Source of the DNA: Mytilus edulis
Lineage: Eukaryota
DNA: 64,000 nt
Direction: 5' to 3'
NCBI RefSeq assembly: GCF_963676685.1
Contig: NC_092357.1
Span: forward strand, 48,918,001-48,982,000
The translations under genes were made by a program, and so were the position numbers. Positions 5,633 through 63,656 of this stretch are shown here, in pieces. Numbering within the stretch: the stretch's first letter is position 1; the number at the start of each line of letters is the position of its first letter. The notes under the pieces are model-generated. The model had not been told where the DNA came from. It saw only the letters and a list, made by a program, of their open reading frames with translations, and searched no databases.

Positions 5633-6540
5633 TTATATTCCAAAACTTTTAGACACTGTAAGAGCTGATAATATAATTTCTCTTACTCTAGTATATGATA
5701 AAGGTTTAAGACCTCTCAGTTTATAAGACTTAGATTTTTTTACATAAATACATGGATCTAAATATATAATTTGAAGATGATGCGACAATATTTGATAATA
5801 ATAAATATTTCTCCAACATACTAACAGGACATGTTTGTGTAACTGTTCTAGCAATTAAAACCTGTGTGCCTTCTCTATAATGATCAGTTTTGCTTTTCTG
5901 AATAAGCAATGATACATGTGTGTCAGAAAATTTTAAATCAGATCTTTTTAATTTTACCATTTCAGAAAATCTTAGAAACCCTGCATAACTAATAAGATAC
6001 ATACAACAAATTCTAATTTCTATAAGATTGTTACATTCTTGACCATATTTAATAACAATTTTCTTTAAAATATCTGGCGTAATTGGTTCTTTTTTATTTA
6101 CAATAATAATGTCCAATCTTTCTATGAGCTCCTTCCTTAACCGATATACACAACTGTGAATAACACGGATTTGGATAGCCAGCTAGTTTATGAGCCCAGC
6201 TTATGGAATAATATGCCTCTTCAACCTTAGCATACGAATTAAATTTCTTTGATAGGTGTATTAACTACAATGAAACATAAAAATCTGAAGCTGGTAAAGG
6301 TTTAACATAAGAATAGTTATTACACCACTAACAGAAATTGTTAAATGCATATGAATTTTTTCTTTTGGTATTCTCGGCCTTCGAACGCAGACAGAACTCA
6401 AGTAGGCAATTAGATAAAGATAACAAATCTTGTTCGACTGGCTTAGGCAAGGATTTCCATAATCCACATGAAAAATATCTGAAAAACGTGCATATGAAAT
6501 AGAAATATAATCTACTATACTACTATTTTCCTCACTGGCC
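5633..6540 (-). pseudogene. Tyrosine recombinase of PAT-like element, frameshifted and lacking C-terminal catalytic motifs
   Basis: KKEPITPDIL...YAGFLRFSE...SKTDHYREG...CPV; no HSxR or catalytic Tyr before the B1 repeat. Confidence 0.8.
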
Positions 6541-6699
6541 ATGTAAGTGAGACCTTGCCTATTAAATTTGGCCTTGTCATCAACATACGACCTTGCCAAT
6601 ATATTGGCCTTGTCTTTACTTTGCGACCTTGCTCAACAGCCTTGTCGTAAATTCTTAAGTGAACTCAGCGTTCAATCTTATAGCTAACACACTAGAAAC

Positions 6700-8497
6700 G
6701 AATTCAGAAGATCTCAACAAGGACTTAATATGCATACCATGAATAAAAATGTTACGATTTGGTTGAAACTCTATAACATCAATTACATATGGTTGCAAAT
6801 GTGAACCTCTTTGAAAAAATCATTGTCCAAAATGACGAGGAAGGCCACTTTGGAACTATCAAAGTGCCTCTAGCTTTACATAAAATCAAATGTCTAATTG
6901 CTCTACAAACAACAGAAATTGGAGGAACAATTCAATTAACTTCATTATTCCAATTTTACGTGAACGCATCAACTGCTTCAACATCTGGATTCCAGAATTT
7001 AGAATTAAACCTTGGTATTTTTTTATTTAGATTACTCGCAAACCTGTCCACAGTATGTGGACCCCACATATCATCTACAAATTAAAAAAATTCTATGTTT
7101 GTTCCCCAGTCTTCTATATCAATCATTTTTTAATCAGCTTTAGTATTTTCAGATCTCGGGATCCAAACAACATCGAACGTTATATTGAATTCAGAACACA
7201 ACTTGAAAATATTAATAGCTATCTCTTGTAAATGTACTTTTGCACTTCCTTTCTGAACAATGAAAACATAGTAATTTGTTATTATTAGTATGCCATGTAA
7301 CACATTTATTTTTTAAACGATTTTTAAACGACATTAATGCCAACAAAATAGCTTGAAGTTCTCTCCATGTAGAACTTTGTAAGGACTCTTGTAAAGTCCA
7401 CATCTGATTTAAAATATTAGAGTCGATATCTTTCGAGTAAGCACCAGCAGCTACATTACTGGCATCAGAATATACAACCACGTGAGGAAAAGAATAACCT
7501 GCTAAATGTTTTCTATTCAATCTTTGAATGTTATTCAGCCAACATGTGAGCTCATTGAATACACAATCAGGACATTCCAATATTAACTTTAAATCCCACT
7601 TTACTCTGTTTTCAATAGCCCAGTGTAAATAACGGGTCATTAAACTAGTTATGTTACCCATGACTGGACACATAGAAATTATCTTTCCCGTTACCTGAGC
7701 CAACTTACGTGCTGTGAAATTAGGAAAGTTATTTAAAACATCAACCACTGATGTTATGGTATTTTCAATCCGTCTATCTAATTGAAAAATCAGACGAATT
7801 CCAAACTAAACCTTACCACTCTAAACATTGGACTGGTTCAAAAATAGAATTGTCCATGTTAATTAAAAAACCTGCTTCTAACAAAGACGTTTTCACAAAA
7901 GATGAACATTCGGAAGCTTCTTGTTTATTTCTACCCATTCCAAGTCCATCATCTGAGTAAAGTACAATATCTACGCCATTTTCTCGCCAATATTTTACGA
8001 TTGGACGTAAAGATTTAGTGAATAGATATGGAGCAGATAATAAACCAAAGGTTAACACTGTAAAATAGTAAAATGTATTGTTCCAGCAAAATCCTAAATA
8101 TGTTGTTTGTTGTTTAGTACATACGTCATAATGAAAATAACCAGACTTAAAATCAAACTTAAATTGATAGCAATCTTTTGCCACCTTCCAGTCTTCAAAT
8201 TTTATTCTTTCTTTTTAATAAAAACATTCAGTTCACTTAGATCCAAAATCAGACGTTTTTTGTCCGAACTTTGAACCGCACCACTAAGCGGATTTACAAC
8301 AAATGGTTGAAATGGAGTTTCAATTACACATTTGATATCAAGTAATTCTGAAATTGCTTCATTTACAAATTTAGAATGTACATTAGCAGATATTTTATTC
8401 TTAAATGACATAGATGTAGGAGTCTGCAAAAAAAGGAATAACGTAACCATGTTTGATAGTATTTATAACAAATTCATATTTTTCCAAAATTGTATAT
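6700..8497 (-). pseudogene. RT-RNaseH-methyltransferase-like ORF of PAT-like element, frameshifted
   Basis: VVNPL..KKRLILDL, FDFKSGYFH, LTFGL, YSDDG, YSDAS, SSTWREL, then WGPHTVDRFAS..RFNSKFWNP..EAVDAF; N-terminus continues at about 10100-10160 beyond an insertion. Confidence 0.85.
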
Positions 8498-21801: not shown

Positions 21802-24800
21802 TTAAAACGATTTGAATTTGTTCCTGGCGTTTTGGAGACAAGGGTTATTTTCATATTTTTCAAAAGCCGTCTGAATATAATGTATTTTTAATTCCTGTAA
21901 ACTACTACGTTCTGTGAGAATGTGCACTAAATAACGAGTGTCATGCAATATTTCTATGAACTCTGATTCATCTCGGCTTGTTTCTACTTTCAACATATCT
22001 ACTAATGATCCTTTCTGTTTTAAAAAAACCAATTTGATATTTTCCTTGCCTGGAATTATTTGTTTATCTTTAATTGGAAAAGCAATAATACTTTTGTTAC
22101 ATTTTCTGAAATCCAAAAAATCATCATAATTTTCTCTTCCCACGGTTTCTCCACAAAAGCAATGCTGCACAATATCTTCAAATATGTAACTTAATCCACG
22201 CATATCTCTCGGCAAATCTGCTTTCAAATCTTTTTGACATTTTGCTAGAGACAATAAAAACTCGAATGAGCAATCTAGGTCAATGATTCTAACTTTTTTA
22301 AGGAAAATTGCGACTTTGCACTGTCGTCCTAATTCGCAGGCAGTTTTAAATGCTTTTGAACAGTTCAGTTGTTCGTGTTTAAATGTAGTAAGAAAGAAAT
22401 CAATAATATGTGTATAAAATGGGCTGTGTTCGACTGCAAGTTGAAGACATTCCGGTAATACACTAAGATATTTTGATTCATTAATCACCTCAATTATGGC
22501 TTTGATTAAATCCAAATTTTCATTTATAATCGCTGTCTTAAACATCTGCGTAGTAAAGCTTACATTCAATATGTTTTCAAATGAACGGATATTAAGCAAT
22601 TCTTTAAGCATACGAAACACTTTACCGTTTTCTAAAGAACTACTGAATATATATTGAAAGTCAATATTTTGTGATTTACACATCGCCATAAACTGACTTT
22701 TAAGTAAAGTGTCTTCATATGTGGACACAATCGAAAACGATTTCACATTAATATGCTTTTGTAGCGGTGCTAGTTGCAAAATCTTCAGTCCATGAACACC
22801 AATATTGCAGGCTTTCTCAAGAAGCACCTCAAAATCAGTCTTAAAAAGATTGTATGACCATCCTAATATTTTCAATAACGGAGTATCATAATCTTTATCG
22901 AAATGTTTAATGTCTTTCAAAATAGTTTTTCCAAACCAATCAATAATATAAATGTTATCATATAAACAAGCCTGAAGAACGGCTCTTTCGAAGTCTATAG
23001 GTTCAAATCTTCTTGAACACATCAACATTTCTGCCAGACAAATGGAGCCGATTTGAAACGAAAAGTCCAAAGCGTTCTTCAAGTCTAGTGACAAAGATAT
23101 ATCATTGGATATCAAATATTTCATTATATTTATATTTTCAGATCTAAGTGCGGCATCAAAAACGTTTTGCAGCAGAAAGTCATTTGAAGGCAACACTTCC
23201 ATTAAATATTGTGGTAATTTTATATCATCGTCCTCATTACTACAAGCTTCACATAACACCTGTTCAACGTTGAATAATTTACAACCATTTGGAATGTTAC
23301 TCCCGTGTTTATCTCCGTTATTGAAAATTATTTCAAATTTTTTCTCACTGAGTATACGTCGAAAAAGCCATGTAACAAGTTCTATATTATTTGCCCGACA
23401 AGCAATACTTAACAAAATGTTGAAACATTCAACTTCATCAAAATCGATTTCCGTTGTCTCAAGTGAAAACAATTTATTCATATAATTGAAAAGGAAAAAT
23501 GATTCTCGTGCTCGTCTAATAGCTAAACATAACCATTTTTTCTTAAATTGCATATTGCTATGTTTAAACATGAAGTATAACGTATTTATGTATCTGTCAA
23601 TATCCAATTGATTAAACACAGCTACCATGGATGACATAAGAGAAGCATTTGTACTACACTCGGATATGAGAAAGTCCCAAAGCAGTTCAATAACTTGCGT
23701 ACTGCCATATTTTGACAGATTAAGAACAACAAATCCTAGAAAATCATAGCATGCCGTTCTGGAACTAATTTCCAAACTATTATCTAGCATCTCTGCTTTG
23801 AACATTTCAAGAAATTGTAAATCTTTTACCATTTCACTTTTGGCTAGAGTACATTGAATGAAAACGAAATCAGTTTTTTGTATCATTAAATTTGCAAAAA
23901 GATTTATCAAGTTTTTGTAATATTTTACTGGTATCTTCAATACCACTTCTCCGGGTTTTTTAAAGTAAGTTTCAGGTTTTACTATTTCTGCGATGAATGA
24001 GGCACTAAAAGACTTCATTACGCCCAACATATCACAGCCACTGTATGATATCAGTACAGATTCCGATATAATTCTGTGCTGAAACGTGTAGGTATCATCA
24101 TTATATAGTAAATACAATGAAATTAATTCATTTGCCGCGTCAATGACATCATGTGTGGAAATGGAAGTCTCGCTTTCTCCATATACAGACTTCATTATTG
24201 CGTTTACTTTGTCCATATCAACTTTGAATGTTTCCAACTTGTCGTCATTTAAAAGGCAATACACCATGGTAACATACCTTATTTTGCAGGTTGATTTATT
24301 ATCAATATGCAAATATTCCGATCTGTATTTTCTACATGTTCTAAGGGTTTCAATTTCTTGCAAAAGTGACTCGGTAGGATGCTTGAAGAAATTTACACCA
24401 AGAGAACTATAATTCTCATTAGTAAAAAACAATCTACAATTCTCTGGGAAGCCTTGAACGCTATCAAATTCAACTATTTCATCTGTGTCTCTTTTATCAA
24501 GAAAAATGTTCTCACCTGATAGTCCTTCACTTATGCACTGATACGAAGTTAGTATAGCTTTTCGTTCAACTTTATTTAACATAAATTTTGTTGACAGATC
24601 AACAGTGAACATAGGAAACCAGAGTCCATTACTTTGCAGAATTTGTCCACAAGAAGATAGTATGAAACTTCGAATGGTTATTATGACTTTAACATTACCA
24701 CCGCGTGTACACACCTTAATATCATTTAATATACTTGCGTCGGTGTTATCGTTGAATACGTAGTTTGTTCTCCCAAAAATGTCCTCTAATAGTACACAAC

Positions 24801-25040
24801 ACTTAAAATCAGTTGAAACTAAAGAGGAAAATTCTTCAAAATTCGTTAGTTTTATAGGAAACGTCTGCCTCATTTCATGAAAATATCTCAGTAACTCTAA
24901 GGCAATTCTTGATTTTCCCGATCCAGCGTGACCAGTCAAGAACACAATATTGTGGGTTTCTAAAATTTTCTTTGCTTCTTTGGCACCTTTAGTTTCAACA
25001 AACGTATTGGTTTGAAGTGATATTTCATTTTTCAACTTTT
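21802..25040 (-). CDS. Exon 2 of HEPN-STAND gene: nSTAND3-like P-loop NTPase, winged helix and degenerate ankyrin-like helical repeats
   Basis: FVETKG, Walker A GHAGSGKS, Walker B VLLEDIFG, VIITIR, GFP, FQHRII; repeats AC..NNIELVTWL; acceptor TTTACAG at 25041-25047 in phase with exon 1. Confidence 0.88.
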
Positions 25041-25820
25041 CTGTAAATATAAAACTGTAATGATATAACAGGAAAACAGTTATTAAGATAACAAAAGATT
25101 TAAATTTTAACTAATTCTAATTATTGTTTATTAACATTGAAAGCTACATGAGTCAATAACTGGCTGCCAAAATAAAAAAAAAAAAACACCAAAACAAACA
25201 TTGTTACAACGGACAGTATTTTTAAAGATTTGACGAGCAAATACAAAACAAAAAATAAAATACCTTTGTTCTTGTTTCTTCTCATACCCACATCTATAAA
25301 ATTAAAGTGTCTTTGATAAATAAATGAGCACGAAAAGTAAGAATTATTGATGTTTTTGTTGTAAAATTGTTTTATTAGATATACCAATATAAGAGTAGGG
25401 CAATAGAAGGTCGATATTTGCACCTAAATTATTAACTAAGTAATTATCATAACCATTTGATGCACAAAAAATATGCAGTCTATACAAATACCAAAATTTA
25501 GTATTTTATTTTGTAATTATGTCATTGTGATGTCATGATTATTCACTTTGCAAATAATGTTTATAATTCTATTCAGAAATCATAATTTTGTATTATGTGA
25601 TTGTATACGTTTTATAACAAGTGAAAGCACCTAGAAACAACATATCATGTAACATCTTAAACATTTAAATATGACATTCAGTATAAATCTTTCCCTCACA
25701 ACTTTTCTCTTTTTTTCTATAGCATTTTCTTAATAGAAGTGACAGTTGTATGTGTTGTTGTTGCAGTAGTAGTAATATAGTGGAAGTTTTAGTAGGAGTA
25801 GAAGAATATAAAAAACATAC

Positions 25821-52031: not shown

Positions 52032-54886
52032 TTAGGCAGACAAACATTCTTTTGGAAATTTAGCATTTAGTATACCTAGCATAAGCTTAATACTAAATTC
52101 TGTTTTTAAATGAAAAATAAATGCTTTGTTAATGGAAAGCTCACTAAATGTCTCGAAGACATTGATTTCATTTGACAGAAAGTACGGACGCATGTGCAAA
52201 AATCCCCCATCAACAAATCGCAGAAGAAAATTGAACATCTTTATAGTTATCTCAGATACTTCCAGTTCATCTTTTAATTGGTTCTTCATTTTTAGTTCGT
52301 CCAGCACATAAAACACGCTATTTTTTAACATATAGCTTTTAATTAATTCAGATGGTCTTGTGTGACGTGGTTTTTCATATTCGCTGTCTTCTTCCTCCAG
52401 CTTGTATTGTTTTGTTTCAATATTAATATCAGGACATACGTTCTTCAAAATTTTTGCCAAGACATAAGCTTTCCGAAAATCATCAGGTAATGACTTCATA
52501 AGGCATATCTCTGCAGGAGCAGCTGAAATGCGCAACAATCTCTTCTTTGCTTGTTCCTCTTCAGGTTCTTTAGTGTTACAGGTTCGGCTAATACAGTGGT
52601 GGTCGCGAAGAAGAATTTTGTGCACTTTTGTTTGCAGCGTCAGGAAACAGCCAGCTGCTTTGATGTCTGGACTAACGAGAGGTATTTTGTAAATATCAGT
52701 ATTTATTGGCCACCAACCTCTTTTGTAAACTGCAGGAACAAGATCTATACTGATTCTCATTTGCTTATAAACAGAACCCAGCCAATATACATCAAAAGTA
52801 AACACGGGTTTGGCGTAAAGTTTCACCATGCTATTTTCAACATTATAGTAGAAATTTCCCTCCTTCCATTGATGAGATTCATTCAGTGCTCTTTCCAAAT
52901 AATCGTAGAATAACCTCAGAAACAAAATAGGCAAGAACTAGCCGTCAGCATCAGTAAATGGTAGATACTCGTCAAAAACTTGTGTAGTTTTAAATTTGAG
53001 AGAAGCGAATCCAGATTTCAAAAGATTGTCTGTCATTACAATGTCAGTTATATCATTTAATCGAATTCATCAGGCCGGCCAATTTTTGTTTCTTCAGCCA
53101 TACTTCCAGATGGAAAAACTGACATTTCAAATCTAGAATCGTATTTTTGAATTTGTGTGCAAAGTGACGTGACAAGATTATTAACATCCAATGTGACAGA
53201 TTCTACTTCAGATGAATATTTTGGACTTCTGGTATAGAACGTATCGAGAAGGTAGTTCATGAAGTCCTTCAAATTCAAGGGTAGTTCTAGTAGTGTCTGA
53301 ATATCTTGTGGTGATTTGATACAAGACGATATTATCGTCTCCGGTAGTCCATAAAAAATTTCTTCGAACGTCTTATCTCTATGCATTGATTTTCGAAAGG
53401 ATGTGTGTTCTTCAGCCATTCTGTCTGCTGCTTCTAATAGTGCAATGCAACGAAAACTATTGTGTCTCTTTGCTGTGTCCAGAGGTCTCTCTTGGAGATT
53501 GTCGCGAGCATTCATATTTGCACCAAATAATAACAATATCTCTATTTGTTCCTCATAATTATGATATGCTGCAAAATGCAGTGGCGTAGATCCATACATG
53601 TCAGTGGTATTCAAATTAACTGTCCCCTTTACAAGGAAAGTCCTGAATAAATCTGGCATAGGTCTATATTTCATGATAGAAATCAACGCACTTCGTTCCC
53701 ATTTATCGTAAATTTTGCAATCTGCATTGAACTCACAAAAAATATTGAAAATATGCTCACTTAACGTCAGGGATAAAACAGATTCCCCGTACATGTTTTG
53801 TGCGTTTATGTCAGCACCAATTTCCAGGAGATATTCCAATACATCGCCATACACATATCCATGTGAAACACCACAAATTTGATGCAATACTGTGTTTCCA
53901 AATGTATCATTGACTTCAGGAGACACACCATAGATAAGAATTGTTTTAAGATTTTTGGCTGATGTAGTGTAACCTTTTCCGCCTATCATTATATTCCAAA
54001 GTGTTTTTCCAAAAACATCTCTGCTGGATAACAATGCCCTTAAACTAGATTGATCATATTTTGCAATGCATTCAAACAATTCGAAAATATCTTCTAATAG
54101 TTCGTGGGTAACATAAACATGCAAAAAGTTTTCATTCTTTATGTTAATCAAATTCAAATTTGTTTCCGGAAAATTTGAAATAAAAAAACTTCAATAATGG
54201 CGTGTTTTCCTCCCTCGTAGCAATGAGATGAAGGATACCGTCTCCAAATGTAGTCTGATTGTTAACATCGATTCCGGCATTGATGAGAGCTTGCAAAGAC
54301 TTTCTTAGATCGATACTAAATGTTTTTTTCATATGACCGTATACACGAAGTGGCATTTTGAATATGTCAGCGTCATCGTCATCATCACCTGGAAGGCAAA
54401 TACTCATTACAGGCAAATTGTCATCTGAATTGTTACTTTCGCCATCATTTGCCGCAATGAGACTCTGAAGGGCATTGTATCCGTTTATATCTTTGCTATT
54501 GACATCAATACCAGACGACTTTTTTGTTTGACCCCACTTATTACGGGCGTTGACGTCGACGCCCTTTGTCAATAACTTCTCAATGTCAATTTTCCCGTCA
54601 TGTTTTTCATTTTTGGCTGCTAAATGTAGAGGTGTTTCACCTTTTGTGTTTACTTTGTTGTATTTGCGAAATTCACTTTTTGTTGCCATTTCTCAATTAA
54701 GAAACCTCTCAAAAAGGTATTATTTTCAGCAGTTGAAAAGCCCACAGTAATGTTTCACTTCCGATCTCAATTATCTATTCCCTATATTGCATACTAGCAG
54801 TTGGCTTCATAATTTGAACTAGATTTACAAGTTGAGCAATTGCATCAATCATTGGCAGACAGAATAGAATGTCTTGCTCACAATAT
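52032..54886 (-). pseudogene. Ankyrin-repeat + cGAS-like (Mab21/cGLR) nucleotidyltransferase gene, disrupted
   Basis: Ankyrin GETPLHLAA, GNTVLH, GSTPLHFAA; NTase SGSMAEETKIGRPDEFD, ISIDLVPA; Mab21 SYMLKN; frameshifts near 54180 and 53058, TAG near 52938. Confidence 0.88.
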
Positions 54887-55325
54887 CTGCAACAAAATGA
54901 TAATTATACAACATTGTTTGAATTTGTAATATTTGTAATCCTAGTTTAACCATATATAATGAGATCCTATTTTACCATATATAATGAAATCCTATTTTAC
55001 CATAAATAACGGATATACACACTAAAATATGTGCTTTGTCAATAGATTAACATTTATTGTAAATAAAAGATTTTTTGGCTGGAATTTCCGATAATATTGA
55101 TTTTATTAATGCCATGTGTGTAGAAGGCATTTCTTTGTTTAAGTATATCAACATGAGGTCAAGGACTACATCATGTTCAATGCATGAGCATCTAATTACA
55201 TTATCTGATTGGTCAGTTCTTAAAATCGGTAATTAATATCAAATTTCTACATGTGCTTGGACATGCGGTCATTCGCCTTTGTTTTGGGAGAAAGAAAAGA
55301 TCGTTTTGAATTTATCTGAAAAATT

Positions 55326-55373
<48 letters not shown>

Positions 55374-55394
55374 GAAAAAGAGAAAAGAAGAGGA

Positions 55395-55584
55395 AAGAGA
55401 CAATGCGACTTTCTGGCATCATAGGGGGTTGTGGAAGAACACCCCAGATTTATTATTAAAAGATAAAGTTCATCTTAATGATGAAGGTATGGAAATATAC
55501 GCTAGAAGTGTCCGTGCTGCTGTTGGTAGCCTTTCACGAACATGTAATGTCGAGCAAACATGCGTTGCAAATTACCGTTTATGA
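55395..55584 (+). pseudogene. C-terminal fragment of SGNH hydrolase-like ORF inside Ngaro
   Basis: FWHHRGLW..LLLKDKVHLNDEGMEIYARSVR (DxxH block V); preceded by poly(A). Confidence 0.65.
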
Positions 55585-56292
55585 TTGTTATAAACTTATT
55601 GTCCCTATTTGGACATATGAAGAAAAGAAGCATACACTACAATTATGTAGTTATCTATGAATTATTTGCATATTATTACTCCATCACCTTTTGTAACGAT
55701 TTATAATCTAAATTATCTCTGAGTGGTTGTGCTTAGTATGCACGTGGTTGTGCTGCTTATATGCACATGGTTGTGCTTATACGCACATGGTTGTGACACT
55801 GGTGACATGAAAGATGTCTTATTTGTAAATAATTATGGTTGGTTACATCATTTATATCAGAGTTATATAATATAATATGTCTCTTTTTATATTTAAATAT
55901 TGATTATCCATAATCATGGTTTATATACTTTTATTTTAGTATATTATTAGGTTAATTATTTAATCAGAGAATAAATCATGTCTTTCCCTATAATGGTTGT
56001 GTCACAATAGGGATCGATTTTGGTACTATTAAAGAATTTTATTCATATTGGTTGGTTTTATAAAATTGGTTTTGGAGTAATAATTAGCATACATGTATCA
56101 TAGTCAAACTTAACTTTTAACATGAGTACATTTTGCTAGATATATCATCATATCAACTATGTTAATTTTATTGACAAGCATTTTGGTTTAAAAATTATAC
56201 TTATTTACATTTGTAGTAACATTCTTAAAGTTCTGTGATATACAGGATTTCTATTTTTATTTTTGTTTTTTGTTTTATGTTTTTATAGCAAA

Positions 56293-57441
56293 ATGCCAAA
56301 GCAGAAGAGCCGAACAAGAAGAAAGGCTGCTCCTCAAAGCATCGAAGAAGATGTTCCAAATTTAGTGGAGGAACAAAGTGAGATACCACCACTATACAGG
56401 CCACCAGTGCGGAGACGCAAGACCAGACGAGCTGTTCCTGAAACAATTACTGAACAGCCGTCTGTTCCAACAGCAAATGACATTGCTGATGCTTTATTCC
56501 GAAAGTTTGAAAGTTCCGGCGTGCAACTGGTAAAAGACAATACAGCAGTTCCAATTAATGACTTAACTGGTATGTTGTCGTCATCATCCACACAACCAGA
56601 AAATTCATCAAATAATGACTCTCAGGGACAAATGTTAGCTGTCTTCCAACCGCCATTGTCTTCAGATCCTAATATTAACACGTCTTCTGATGGTGAGCTG
56701 TTAAACTCTAACTCGTATGCCGAGAATCCTTATGCTTGTGACATGTTGAGACATTCTATACCTTTAGACTATCATGTCAGCAGTAAGGTTAAATCTGATG
56801 TTTGGTGTGATAATTATGTAAATTTTGCTTTATTATTACCTTCTAACATTGATGATACATGTAATGAATCAACATTATTTGAGAATTTGAATATAACAAT
56901 TTCAAATAGGAAGTCTAACAAAGAGCTTTTGTCCATTCACCAATGGACAAATGCTTTTGACATATTTATGTCTATATATCTTGAAAAGAATTTGAGGTCG
57001 GCTAGAGCATTGATTAAATATGGTTTTAATGTACGGTCATTATGCAAGTCCTTGGGTTTCCAAGCCGCTAAAGTATATGATGAGAAATTTAGAAAGATAA
57101 GAAAAATTTTAGGGTTACAATGGGATCAAATCAATGATGAACTTTGGCGATCTGCTGCTTTATATGAAAGACAATCTGATTTTTCAGGTCAAAATAAGAA
57201 GTCGTATGCTAAAACCTCAAACTCAGGCCCAAATTCTTTTCAAAGGAGGGCCCAGCATCAGTATCAATTCCCAAATGGCTATTGCTGGGCCTTCTGTAAA
57301 TCAGGGGAATGCACAGCAAAGTTTTGTAAACTCAAACACCAATGTGTACACTGCAGCAAGAAACACTATACCCTCACATGTCCAGAGCAAAAAGGAAAAC
57401 AGGCAAACTTTGTCAAAACTTCCAACACCAATAAAGGTTGA
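56293..57441 (+). CDS. Ngaro gag-like ORF1
   Basis: V..KVKSDVW...YVNFALLL, SIHQWTNAFDIF, YDEKFR, C-terminal CCCH/CCHC zinc finger. Confidence 0.9.
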   Translation: MPKQKSRTRRKAAPQSIEEDVPNLVEEQSEIPPLYRPPVRRRKTRRAVPETITEQPSVPTANDIADALFRKFESSGVQLVKDNTAVPINDLTGMLSSSSTQPENSSNNDSQGQMLAVFQPPLSSDPNINTSSDGELLNSNSYAENPYACDMLRHSIPLDYHVSSKVKSDVWCDNYVNFALLLPSNIDDTCNESTLFENLNITISNRKSNKELLSIHQWTNAFDIFMSIYLEKNLRSARALIKYGFNVRSLCKSLGFQAAKVYDEKFRKIRKILGLQWDQINDELWRSAALYERQSDFSGQNKKSYAKTSNSGPNSFQRRAQHQYQFPNGYCWAFCKSGECTAKFCKLKHQCVHCSKKHYTLTCPEQKGKQANFVKTSNTNKG

Positions 57442-58995
57442 AAATTTGGAACATTTTTAGTAGGTTATGAAACCCAGTTGAAAGATAAATTGATTCATGG
57501 TTTTTCTTTTGGATTTTCAATTAATTCTTGTTTTTCTACATCTCCTAATAAGAAGACTTTCCCTCCAAATCATAAAAGTGCAAGGGAAAATTATCATGTG
57601 CAATCGAAACTGAATAAAGAGATTGAAGCAGGCAGAGTTAAGGGTCCATTTACAAAGCCCCCTTTCCCTCTTTTTGTATGCTCCCCTTTGGGTTTAGTTC
57701 CAAAAAAGGAACCCAATTCTTATCGATTAATACATGATTTGTCGTATCCTAAGGGTGACTCTGTAAACTCTGGTATTTCCCCAGAATTTTCGGCAGTACA
57801 ATACCAAAACATTGAAACAGTCATAGATTTAGTCCAATCTTATGAATCAAACTGTCTAATGTCCAAAACCGATATTGAGCATGTATTTCGCTTAATTCCA
57901 ATAGCTAAAAAAGATCATCATCTGTTAGGTTTTCATTGGGACAAACAGTTTTATTATGATGTATCCCTCCCCATGGGGGCTTCGTCCTCGTGTCAGCTAT
58001 TTGAGGCTTTTTCTACAGCCCTCCACTGGATTTTAAATGCTAAATTTCAAATATATGGGGTATCACACCTGTTAGATGATTTTTTCTTTGTCGGAAAAGC
58101 TGGCTCAAATGAATGTTATAGTGCATTACAAACTTTTCTTTGTCTTGCTGATAAATTGGGGGTACCCATCAAATCAGAAAAAACACAACTCCCTACTACT
58201 TGCATTACTATCTACGGTATTGAAATTGATTCTACTCAGATGGTAGCTCGATTACCTATGGAGAAAATAGAAAAAATTTTGCAATTATTAAGTAAATACA
58301 AATGTAAACGCAGTATCTCACTCAGAGAATTGCAATCCTTATTGGGTCTTTTAAATTTTGCATGTGGAGTTACCATACCTGGGAGAGCCTTTTTACGTAG
58401 GCTTTTTGATCTGACTATAGGTCATACATCTCCTCATTATAGAATCAATCTGAATTCTGATGCAAGATTAGATCTTAAGTTATGGTACAGTTTTATTGAA
58501 AATTACAATGGTAAATCTTGTTTTTTATTCAAAGAATGGGTTTCATCAGATTTTTTAAAACTGTTTTCTGATGCTACAGGTACTTATGGTGGTTTTGCTG
58601 CAGTTTTTGGCAGCAAATGGTTTTCAGGGAAATGGCCACCGGAGTTAATTGATTTACACATTACAGTGAAAGAACTTTTCCCGATTGTGTTAGCTATTGA
58701 TATATGGGGCCCTCTATTAGCAAATCATAAAATACTGTTTTTAACAGATAATTCAGCTGTTGCTGAAATTATAAATAAGACATCATCTCGGGAAAAGAAT
58801 ATTATGAGACTGATCCGAAGATTAGTGTTAGCTGCATTAAAGTACAATATCTATTTTAGAGCCAAACATATTCCTGGGAAAACAAACGTTATTTGTGACT
58901 TGTTGTCTCGTTTTTCATTTCAGGAAGCTCATCAGATTGCTCCTTGGTTAAGTCCAACTCCTGTGGTCATTCCACCTCAATTTTTGCATCTATGA
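57400..58995 (+). CDS. Ngaro RT-RNase H ORF2
   Basis: LPTPIK, SPLGLVPKK, YRLIHDLSYP, LPMG, HLLDDF, FSDA, KELFP, TDN, DLLSR; a stop near 57460 interrupts the N-terminus. Confidence 0.9.
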
Positions 58996-59904
58996 CTGAT
59001 AAGCTTGTTAGTGCATCATTATCTGCTGCTACTCAGTCATCATATAATAGAATGCTAAGTGTGTATTCAAATTTTTGTCAGAAATATTTTCCAGGAGTTA
59101 ATGTACTTCCATCTACTCATGTCATGGTTGCTCATTTTATTTCACATTTATTTATTCAAAATTATCAAAACATCTACAATTGCGTCTTACATATCAGCCA
59201 TCAGTTTTATGCATAAAATTAAGTTCTTACAGGATCCAACAGACACATTTTTTATTAAAAAAATGTTAAAAGGTACAAAACAGTTGAGACATTCTGTTGA
59301 TACACGGCTGCCAACAACCTATGACATTCTTGTAAAATTGGTTAAGGCTTTACCAAAAGTAATAGTAGGCATTTATAATCAAGTTTTGTTAAAAGTTATG
59401 ATGTCTACGGCTTATTTTTGTTTCTTAAGGATTGGAGAAATTGCAGTTAAAACTGAGTCTGAAATCTATAGAGTAATTCAAAGGGAAGATATAAAGTTTG
59501 AAAGAGTAAATGGTCATGTGAGCAATATGACAATTACTATGAAGTTCTACAAACATAGTAATCTACAGAGTAAGACATTATCAATAGCTAGACGTCCTGA
59601 AAATTATTTATGTCCTGTTAAAGCTATTGAGGAATATCTAAGGTTACAAAATTGTCCACATGGTCCTTTATTTCGATTTAAATGTGGAAAACCTGTTTCG
59701 GGTTTTTATTTCAATTCTTCACTAAAAAGTTTGCTTAATTTCGTAGGATTAGACACTAATTTTTATAAAGGCCACAGTTTCCGAATTGGAGCTGCGACAT
59801 CTGCAGCTGCCAGAGGTGTGCCGTTAGCCTTGATCCAAAGCATGGGTAGATGGAAGTCGAACGCTTTTCAACATTATATTCGACTTGATAATTTTCACAC
59901 TTAG
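58992..59904 (+). CDS. Ngaro tyrosine recombinase ORF3 (one frameshift near 59165)
   Basis: FLRIGE, CPV, GHSFRIGAAT, GRWKS, HYIR all present. Confidence 0.9.
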
Positions 59905-61359
59905 ATTTAATATAATCTCAGTCGCTTATTAAGTACTTTGGTAGAGGTCAACATGGCTTGCTTTACCTTATTGTGATTTTTTGTATTTACTTTTAGAGAG
60001 GTCAACATGGTTTGCTCTGCAAATTTAAGTTTTTTTATTTCAGTCATTTACTATATGTAATGGTATTTATTGGGTTGGTAGAGGTCAACATGGCTTGCTT
60101 TACCTTTCCTTACAAGTTTAATTATCAATGATGATTTTGTATACTTATATATCATTTCTTTTTTGTTTTGTTTTGTTTATAATATGTGTTATTATTTTTG
60201 TAGAGGTCAACATGGTTTGCTCTACACTTTTACTGAAATGCTAAAGTTAAAAAGAGTATATTTTATTCAATTGTGGGTGTTTTTTATTGAGGTCAACATG
60301 GCTTGCTCAATTTTCTAATTCTGGAGTTTCTAAGTTGAATACAGAGTCCTCGGTTGGGGATCCCTCTTGGGATTTGTGGCACTTTTTCAACCCCACCTTT
60401 GCTTATTAAAGTCATTGTCATTTATGCAGTACTATTATAATTGTTAAGATGTAAGTTGCATTTTAAATTAATTTCTGAATAAATGACATTTTACTCAACT
60501 TGTATTTTATTAACAGCAAACATAGCTCAGACTCTTTGATCTTGGTCATTTATACAAGGTTTTCTCGTTGTTATCTGTGTCAAGGAACATTAGCTGACAA
60601 AATAACATTTATTGTAAATAAAAGATTTTTTGGCTGGAATTTCCGATAATATTGATTTTATTAATGCCATGTGTGTAGAAGGCATTTCTTTGTTTAAGTA
60701 TATCAACATGAGGTCAAGGACTACATCATGTTCAATGCATGATCATCTAATTACATTATCTGATTGGTCAGTTCTTAAAATCGGTAATTAATATCAAATT
60801 TCTACATGTGCTTGGACATGCGGTCATTCGCCTTTGTTTTGGGAGAAAGAAAAGATCGTTTTGAATTTATCTGAAAACCCTCCCATTTCCCTCCCTTTTA
60901 AGTGTTATTATATAGGACATTTATTTTTTTCTTTAAACATGAATTGATTACAATATTCATGTATACTTGTTTATATAATTTGTATATACATATGTTGGTG
61001 AGTTAATTTTTCAACTCACTTTTATTTTTGTCATTTTTATGATGTTTATTTTGTTACGGTGTGGCACTTTTTCAACCCCACCTTTGCTTATTAAAGTCAT
61101 TGTCATTTATGCAGTACTATTATAATTGTTAAGATGTAAGTTGCATTTTAAATTAATTTCTGAATAAATGACATTTTACTCAACTTGTATTTTATTAACA
61201 GCAAACATAGCTCAGACTCTTTGATCTTGGTCATTTATACAAGGTTTTCTCGTTGTGATCTGTGTTTAGGAACATTAGCTGACAAAATGACATTTTTGTG
61301 ACCGAACTGATATCTGCTAAGCATTAGATCGTATTGTGGTCAATGTTCAGATTTCCTGA

Positions 61360-62501: not shown

Positions 62502-63656
62502 TCAGTTGAACTTGTCAATGGTGGTGGACGTACCAGGAGAATCGGGTAAGTCTTTATTAACTAAATTTATCGTAAATGTTCCCCGGGTTATTGTAGCGTT
62601 TGTAAAAATGCTCATGTCTGACAGAAGATTCCTGGATAAGGTTGTACATGTACTGACATTTGAGACTTGGCAGGAGGGGCCCTTTGACACATATTCATTA
62701 CTGTTAATTGCGGTAGCTACACCCTGTAGAGTTGATGAGAGTGCACGCCTTTGTGCATCTGACGGTCCAGCAACGTAACTTTCTAACGATTTAATGTTTC
62801 TATGACCCGTAACTGACATGATAGTTAAATCATCGACCCCGGCGCGTTTCAGCCCAGTACCAACGGTAGCTTTTATACAATGGTTGGTGTATCTGTAGGA
62901 AAGGCCTGCTTCATTTGAAATCCTTGGCATCATTTGACTCAATTTGTTTTTTCCCATGGCTTGATTAGCATACCAGCAATTAGGTTTTGGATAAAGCAAT
63001 GGCTGTTGAAACAGCGCATTACATTTAGGACTCAATTTAGATACATAAAAATCAAAACTTGCCACTGGACAGTTTTCATCTCCTGATTTTTCATACATAC
63101 GCACCTCTTGACGGTTTTCATGGGAATCAACGCTATGGTGAGTTTTATTTGCCTCATTGTATGTCATTTTATAATATGTATGGTCCCTGTCATCTTTGAA
63201 TTTACCAAAAGATGACTTTGTCAAACTATTTAACCCTTCCTGGCCTCGTCTTCCAAAATTCAACATTAAGTCCCAGAATACTTTCTTTTGTAGTGTTGCT
63301 GGTGAATCTGTGTTGAAAACCCCACTTGAATATAAACGCTGTATGTCTCCTTGAGCTACAGGTTTTTTGTGTACCGTAACATCTTTGCCGGCTCTCTTTA
63401 GGGTTTTTTATCATTCCCGTTATAACATGATTTGATGTCATGAAGGCATTATCTTTCATTAAATTAACATTACGGTTGTATGGTGGAGATGTGAGATGAC
63501 GGGATATTGCTGCAAGTATTCCAACTAATGCTGATTTAGAGTAATCTGTCCCTTTTTTTGTTTGCAGGCTTGGATAGAAAAAGCATAATCTGTCGTTTAA
63601 TATGGAGCTTTCAAGTTTCTCAAACTTGTCACTGTATTGGTTCTCTGTCAACCATC
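62502..63656 (-). mobile_element. Crypton tyrosine recombinase (DUF3504/ZMYM-KCTD1-like) coding exon, one frameshift
   Basis: FGRRGQEG, CPVASF, WY..Q.MGKN, YTNHCIKAT, TGHRNIKSLESY; acceptor at 63657; frameshift near 63408. Confidence 0.88.

Follow-up and report, generated by a model that had tools for sequence, protein, structure and literature searches.

The window, i.e. the whole 64-kb stretch of DNA that we analysed, holds a 6.2-kb element with split direct repeats in the order A1...B1-A2-B2, all the parts of which lie on the + strand. Precisely, repeat A1 (55048-55322) is 100% identical to A2 (60603-60877), and B1 (60375-60610) is 98% identical to B2 (61060-61295), with which the element ends. 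Between A1 and B1 there are a gag-like ORF (56293-57441), conserved with other Ngaro ORF1s, an ORF for reverse transcriptase (RT) plus RNase H (57442-58995; PF00078, E 5e-9; PF17917, E 1e-3) and a tyrosine recombinase (YR; 58992-59904; PF00589, E 9e-6), which begins where the RT ORF ends and whose reading frame, in the window copy, is disrupted close to the 5′ end. The C-terminus of Gag carries tandem C-x8-C-x4-C-x3-H and C-x2-C-x3-H-x4-C zinc-finger motifs (57283-57381), the candidate reader of the hairpins described below. An AATAAA is found near 60478 in B1 and another in B2; full-length RNA must pass this signal once.

The order of gag, RT/RNase H and YR on one strand is the one demanded for membership of the Ngaro superfamily (order DIRS), which the parts of PMC9210276, PMC4157794 and PMC8547959 available to us define as A1-gag-RT/RH-YR-B1-A2-B2 without a methyltransferase; the window element has the same layout, and the Pfam scan returned no methyltransferase in it. 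By layout and domain content the element is an Ngaro retrotransposon, an assignment made on these two grounds, our RT and YR trees containing no named reference elements. This is the identity proposed by a previous sequence-only reading of the locus, and repeats, domains and the location of the hairpin array support both it and the 3′ UTR position. A PAT-like retrotransposon was rejected because no methyltransferase follows RT/RNase H. An SGNH hydrolase ORF is absent from the Ngaro lineage of the window element, and the named RT relatives come from bivalves, including Mytilus galloprovincialis.

Other features of the window were also recorded. A long poly(A)/purine tract (55323-55400) directly follows A1 and has no counterpart after A2, and the 5′ leader contains short tandem repeats (55720-55810) with CACATGGTTGTG, from which hairpins having a CAUGGU-like loop could arise. 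On the - strand there are an ORF with DUF3504 and phage integrase domains (62502-63407), Crypton-like, and nSTAND3 NTPase/ankyrin/HEPN-DZIP3 and ankyrin/Mab-21-like ORFs (21802-26871 and 52032-54692) with immune-type domains. A decayed PAT-like YR element lies at about 5700-8450 (- strand), with a methyltransferase-like stretch read by eye, and upstream of its recombinase there are three GAC-AAG-GC...GC-AAG-GTC hairpins (6551-6646, - strand; chance expectation 0) with a symmetric AAG/AAG internal loop. The sequence-only reading had taken this PAT array, together with the Ngaro one, as a hint of an undescribed class of cis-element in YR retrotransposons: the PAT-like array is real, its motif is unlike the Ngaro one.

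The 19-nt core GAGGTCAACATGGYTTGCT has five exact matches in the window, all on the + strand, at 59944, 59998, 60081, 60203 and 60289 (shuffle mean 0.01), as had been described apart from the second copy, which had been put at 59999. The array occupies unique 3′ UTR sequence, beginning 35 nt after the YR stop and ending before B1, about 1 kb from the element end. Hairpin 1 (59940-59967) consists, from 5′ to 3′, of GGTAGAG, a GT bulge, CAA, the loop CATGGC, TTG and CTTTACC, and hairpin 3 (60077-60104) is identical to it. Hairpin 4 (60200-60225) has a GTAGAG/CTCTAC stem and a CATGGT loop, hairpin 5 (60286-60311) an ATTGAG/CTCAAT stem, and hairpin 2 (59992-60023) a CATGGT loop on a basal stem interrupted by A.C and G.G mismatches. 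Since the sequence of hairpins 1 and 3 is the same over 32 nt, only four distinct stems are present among the five copies. The concerted change of the basal stems that had been read from these sequences thus exists as described, with the restriction that two copies are the same and one is interrupted. The four spacers, said to be unrelated and U-rich, are indeed 46-68% T, with no pairwise similarity above shuffles (6/6 pairs, p 0.56-0.99) and no trace of a duplication of whole core-plus-spacer units. Taking the five window copies alone, the pairing of the true 5′ and 3′ arms was equalled or exceeded by 2-4 of 120 permutations, and no single hairpin was more stable than its shuffles on the + strand (z +0.6 to -1.2). 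The support for the hairpin is therefore covariation and not folding energy.

In the genome of the window (1.37 Gb; main contigs C1-C14) the core has 126 matches versus 0 for the reversed pattern. A pattern including the stem gave 79 matches (control 0), every one in an Ngaro-derived locus, whereas a looser pattern gave six isolated matches that we inspected, none of them with the basal stem (control 4). The family of the window element, F1, includes 21 five-core copies with spacings of 54-100, 80-111, 108-126 and 86-87 nt. At one locus (G000:C2:76925882-76931788; L026-L030) the YR end and the first two hairpins are duplicated, in three tandem duplications of 1.44 kb. By a YR search of the genome (151 matches) and inspection of the fetched stretches we found sister families: F2 (YR identity 57%) with five hairpins and F3 (56%) with three, both mainly with CAGGGC loops, and F4 (53%) with two hairpins, a compensatory CAG/CUG upper stem and a CAUUGC loop. 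The motif was absent from families of the same genome at a YR identity of 33-42%, including those with an extra ORF behind YR. Between families the only local matches of the tails were centred on hairpins or lay beside B, and the spacers did not align. The distance from hairpin to B1 was about 60 nt at the least and reached 1.6 kb or more.

We then considered 22 distinct hairpins from six families, whose rows are related, so that the changes counted are not independent events: 85.2% of the cells were paired versus 76.0 ± 1.5% after shuffling (0/500 shuffles), and 10 of the 12 base pairs changed on both sides. Slid pairing registers gave 36-43%, and swapping arms between hairpins lowered the pairing from 77 of 92 to 59.8 ± 3.0 (0/20000). 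RNAalifold returned the bulged-hairpin fold on these sequences, with a 3-bp upper stem and the GU bulge; a cross pair C1-G5 would be possible in the 6-nt loop of 17/22. The CAA/TTG upper stem of the sequence-only reading gains from the CAG/CTG compensatory change, a single event in the genome, and loses from the folding of free RNA given below. Within F1 we found no significant constraint, either in variable sites (22/135 in hairpins vs 59/290 in spacers, p 0.36) or in shared variants (2/135 vs 15/290, p 0.11). The hairpin array is a real, conserved, structured cis-element. Lack of flank complementarity in relatives, indicating a plain DNA motif, was what the sequence-only reading had set as its own refutation, and in the relatives the stems co-vary.

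We also examined 79 metagenome YR loci, excluding L136, which ends inside YR. In 40 of the 79, which are redundant and were counted without a shuffle control, an 11-mer is repeated at least three times behind YR, and most of the repeat-bearing loci that we viewed fold as repeated hairpins. Clustering gave 44 clusters, 10 of which were dropped for having less than 250 nt downstream, leaving 34 families. A descriptor that asked for a [G/U]U bulge, a 3-bp stem initiated by C and a loop of 6-8 nt, loosened after a first look at the metagenome hairpins, returned 30 sense matches in 9 of the 34 families, versus 1 antisense, 0 upstream and 2.7 in shuffled sequences; the strict descriptor with a 6-nt loop matched in just 1/79 loci. 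The covariance model that had been suggested as a check, built from the window genome alone, gave two matches at E 0.26, about 570 nt behind YR (L153 and L157), and no metagenome array at E <0.05. Compensatory pairing was observed in six families of one genome; a single hairpin sequence family across animals is not supported by this model, and it is therefore the architecture, not the sequence, that is conserved farther away. The hairpin class needed 7 changes on the YR tree and 6 on a quickly built RT tree, versus 22 and 15 after shuffling; hence the classes cluster on the element trees and not by host genome, and pass on together with the element. In a separate clade of metagenome Ngaro-like elements (L164, L173, L180, L182, L187 and L193) there is a second hairpin class, which has GCA(U/A/G)GGGC apices in arrays of 4-7 copies.

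Concerning the strand and the nucleic acid involved, stems of the metagenome families contained G.U and A.C in a ratio of 28:5 (p 0.009 vs composition), and those of the families of the window genome of 15:4 (p 0.01 vs 1:1; p 0.40 vs composition). Sense RNA was predicted to fold better than antisense in 19/23 hairpins, while as DNA neither strand was favoured (mean MFE about -3.1 kcal/mol for either one, the sense RNA having -7.7). In the tandem units of the non-autonomous element NA66 (see below), G:C pairs showed C>T in 29 units and G>A in 6, control rates being even, and in A:T pairs the disruptive change was commoner (7 vs 1); these units are not independent. Sense-strand tolerance of G.U would favour RNA over single-stranded DNA, not decisively. 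In the ensemble predicted for the whole UTR as RNA, the basal stems of four copies had a probability of 0.63-0.69, that of copy 2 one of 0.00, and the CAA/UUG stem one of 0.00-0.16, the three CAUGGC copies preferring a GUCA/UGGC register; the conserved apical fold would hence need stabilisation by a ligand. Stems were also predicted in antisense RNA for copies 2, 4 and 5.

Expression data were limited to three stranded RNA-Seq runs of one study, about 6% of each of which was read. The mapped reads numbered 20, 28 and 125, and over the array they were mostly antisense. A 3′ end behind the AATAAA of B1, seen as a drop in read depth, was rejected, a ribosomal-protein gene used for calibration having shown those reads to be antisense. 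In run X24 reads skip 628 nt of RT (57654-58283) with non-splice ends, and probably come from a deleted genomic copy transcribed antisense.

A search with the F4 variant of the hairpin gave 155 genome matches (control 0), most of which lie in tandem arrays of a 66-bp unit. The arrays are part of NA66, an element of 5.5-6.1 kb with complete split direct repeats (L115 and L119) and no similarity to gag, RT or YR (best E 0.68), of which the best 40 matches scored include about 33 with a near-complete interior. Fifteen NA66 loci hold 138 hairpins of the F4 type (CAG/CUG), 6-15 each, compared with 2-5 in coding families. The NA66 and F4 hairpins are identical at 28/28 nt, while their repeats are 70-71% (A) and 88-90% (B) identical, with patches of the 5′ leader in common; versus families other than F4, the B repeat of NA66 is 51-58% identical. 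F4 keeps coding remnants in at least 13 loci and is presumed, from these likenesses, to be the helper of NA66. The 5′ region of NA66 (e.g. L115, L119 and L221) contains repeated long hairpins of the CAGAGGTC...GACCTCTG type, partly common to F4.

Two further families tell of the same retention. F6 has decayed coding traces only, a B repeat 80% identical to that of F2, and CAA/UUG hairpins; F5 is without YR, with a junction common to two copies, and has kept three hairpins. Retention in cis by non-autonomous derivatives, a Psi-like property, was hence observed in NA66, F6 and F5. In the converse direction, all 23 F1 B1 matches that begin at query position 1-2 have an array next to them. The census of B repeats scored the best 40 of 83, 247 and 75 candidates, and no amplified hairpin-less lineage was found among the stretches examined. 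In 40 further stretches, the array-less cases were lone B or A-B fragments, truncated copies, decayed copies (L234 and L235), and deletion copies whose junctions are private (L211, L213, L215, L222, L223 and L232); array-less A-B-A-B and A-B copies do exist among the latter (L211, L215 and L223), each with its own junction. The matching of hairpin type between helper and passenger, together with its amplification, is the strongest evidence added. The locus also brings to light non-autonomous Ngaro partners, which an annotation based on proteins would overlook.

The 3′ breakpoint of these six internally deleted copies is within about 30-50 nt of B1. Directly 5′ of B1, by inspection of the sequence, there is a conserved G-rich stretch (60340-60400, + strand), present in every sister family viewed and complementary to CCCCACC inside B; in sister families it can also pair with a C-rich run behind A2. 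This stretch and breakpoint zone may be a priming or template-switch point.

As a candidate reader we considered the zinc fingers of Gag. Their eight Cys/His residues are invariant in 23/23 aligned Gag rows, which were chosen by that motif, and CCCH/CCHC-like fingers are described as RNA-packaging motifs of YR elements in the part of PMC6681497 available to us. Sequence matches in PDB were limited to tristetraprolin (E 1.6, the best) and other CCCH proteins (E 1.6-8), a model of the Gag C-terminus (pLDDT 83, confident) matched no fold of the PDB at E<=0.001, and no RNA holder is listed on record. Phylogeny confounds the correspondence of zinc-finger type with hairpin type; for this reason, and because L144 misfits, finger position 5 was dropped as a predictor of loop class.

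From these sequence comparisons we give an even chance to the reading that the array is a multivalent tag on the sense RNA, bound by a protein of the element, most likely the zinc-finger pair of Gag. Gag fingers would bind the 3′ UTR hairpins on the sense RNA of the element, and this binding would select the tagged RNA for particle assembly and reverse transcription; passenger elements that keep and multiply the hairpin type of their helper would draw more helper protein. The hairpins would thus act as RNA rather than as DNA. An element-encoded reader is suggested because the signal follows the element and not the host, is absent elsewhere as searched, and is type-matched and multiplied in passengers; within the element, several hairpin copies are more easily reconciled with a Gag that oligomerises than with a single RT. 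Against the tag it must be said that, in a 3′ UTR, it would sit on any spliced recombinase mRNA too, unlike retroviral Psi. A broader proposal, in which a lineage-specific multivalent hairpin code is read by Gag fingers and coding-less parasites win helper proteins by tandem amplification, can be put forward tentatively, with the odds somewhat against it.

The same RNA tag could be read by RT/RNase H, for cis-recognition or to position priming, as by the ORF2 protein of stringent LINEs. The hairpins are near the 3′ end, have family-specific loops and are common to non-autonomous partners; in the parts available of PMC4176376 and PMC1636434, stringent LINE ORF2 reads a cognate 3′ stem-loop common to partner SINEs, and that of PMC7192593 states the primer of DIRS-type reverse transcription to be unknown, even for DIRS-1. 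One polymerase would need one site, however, and there are 2-5 copies in coding families and 6-15 in NA66, at the varying distances from B1 reported above, so that we regard an RT reader as unlikely. The stringent LINE 3′ stem-loop itself was rejected as an identity, the host being a YR element and the array lying about 1 kb from the end.

Still less probable, in our opinion, are sites for a host RNA-binding protein that would control how the RNA is exported, localised or translated, or whether the poly(A) signal in B1 is read through. The 3′ UTR position, the repeated small loops and the AATAAA that full-length RNA has to pass would suit such a protein; on the other side, no stemmed copy was found outside Ngaro-derived DNA, the motif is missing from other Ngaro lineages of this genome, and the loops differ by element lineage. 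The iron-responsive element (IRE), with its CAGUGN loop, 5-bp upper stem and C bulge, was rejected, as CAGUG occurs in 0/22 hairpins, which have a 3-bp stem and a GU bulge; the Smaug recognition element was rejected too, as its CNGG loop is found in 7/22 hairpins and in none of the window's five. When the window tail and NA66 were scanned against Rfam 15, the matches were at E 0.45-7.8 only, none on the hairpins.

We attach a small probability to a cluster of DNA motifs (nuclear-receptor RGGTCA or YY1-like) or to a neutral by-product of duplication similar to Ogre/Tat repeats. RGGTCA occurs in 19 of the 22 hairpins of the genome, so that a second role as a DNA site is conceivable; similar half-sites are present in the A repeats, and RGGTCA is absent from several metagenome families of the same architecture. 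The YY1-like alternative of the sequence-only reading was discarded, AANATGGY being present in only 6/22 distinct hairpins. A p53-type site, the consensus of which has a core C, was rejected by inspection, since the C/T variant removes this C; likewise kissing-loop dimerisation, the CAGGGC and CAUUGC loops not being self-complementary. Neutrality would agree with the lack of significant within-family constraint, with the plain tandem amplification of the NA66 array and with the Ogre precedent (PMC7004042, in the part available), but arms co-vary while spacers diverge, and the NA66 and F4 hairpins are fully identical against the 70-90% of their repeats.

Integron attC is an ssDNA hairpin with extrahelical bases bound by a tyrosine recombinase, and we consider it very improbable that the Ngaro hairpins would be an analogous substrate of YR. 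Two arms around a 6-8 nt spacer, a 2-nt bulge and the single-stranded DIRS-1 cDNA reported in the available part of PMC7192593 speak for this possibility; against it, the first-strand cDNA would be the minus strand, where G.U becomes A.C, DNA folding is weak on both strands, and element ends and junctions are at A/B borders and not at hairpins.

Returning to the multivalent tag read by Gag, titles and abstract openings searched, with the founding Ngaro papers and Repbase outside the scope, gave nothing on Ngaro hairpin arrays, packaging signals or non-autonomous partners, and in the available parts of PMC9210276, PMC4157794, PMC8547959 and PMC10294476 neither a structured array in the 3′ UTR nor a coding-less partner with split direct repeats that amplifies one is described. 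If the code proposed above is true, it would be a system of RNA recognition and helper-parasite competition of which we found no description for the order DIRS, with cognate and non-cognate pairs (F1, F2, F4 and passengers) ready-made in one genome. The locus bears on the way in which YR retrotransposons recognise their own RNA and prime on it: it gives a 28-nt candidate signal, with compensatory variants that arose in nature, helper families with passengers matched to them and a natural dosage series from 2 to 15 copies, by which binding, swap and copy-number experiments become directly possible.

As regards known systems, TAR, hepatitis B epsilon and the IRE are bulged hexaloop hairpins, with a lower stem, a 5′ bulge, a short upper stem and a 6-nt loop. 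The Ngaro hairpin has the same parts, and differs in having no Rfam match, no IRE loop, no 5-bp upper stem, and C-G instead of G-C above the bulge. In retroviruses and LTR elements the packaging signals are clusters of small stem-loops, purine-rich in the loop, which the zinc knuckles of Gag read; retroviral Psi is situated in the 5′ leader, where it distinguishes the unspliced RNA. The likeness consists of such clustered stem-loops and a zinc-finger Gag; the Ngaro array is 3′ instead, and its Gag has CCCH and C-x2-C-x3-H-x4-C fingers, for which no solved structural relative was found. Ogre/Tat 3′ UTR repeats, in the part of PMC7004042 available, are likewise an array downstream of the coding region, and resemble NA66 in tandem amplification; they are hypervariable head-to-tail monomers, whereas the Ngaro arrays are conserved folded cores between unrelated spacers, co-varying across families. 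With the LINE/SINE stem-loop (eel UnaL2, zebrafish ZfL2-1/2-2; PMC1636434 and PMC4176376, as far as available) the Ngaro hairpins have in common a small bulged 3′ hairpin, a family-specific loop and sharing by non-autonomous elements. The LINE/SINE structure is single, at the extreme 3′ end, and read by ORF2 for target-primed reverse transcription, while in the Ngaro elements 2-15 dispersed copies stand upstream of the split direct repeats of a YR element.
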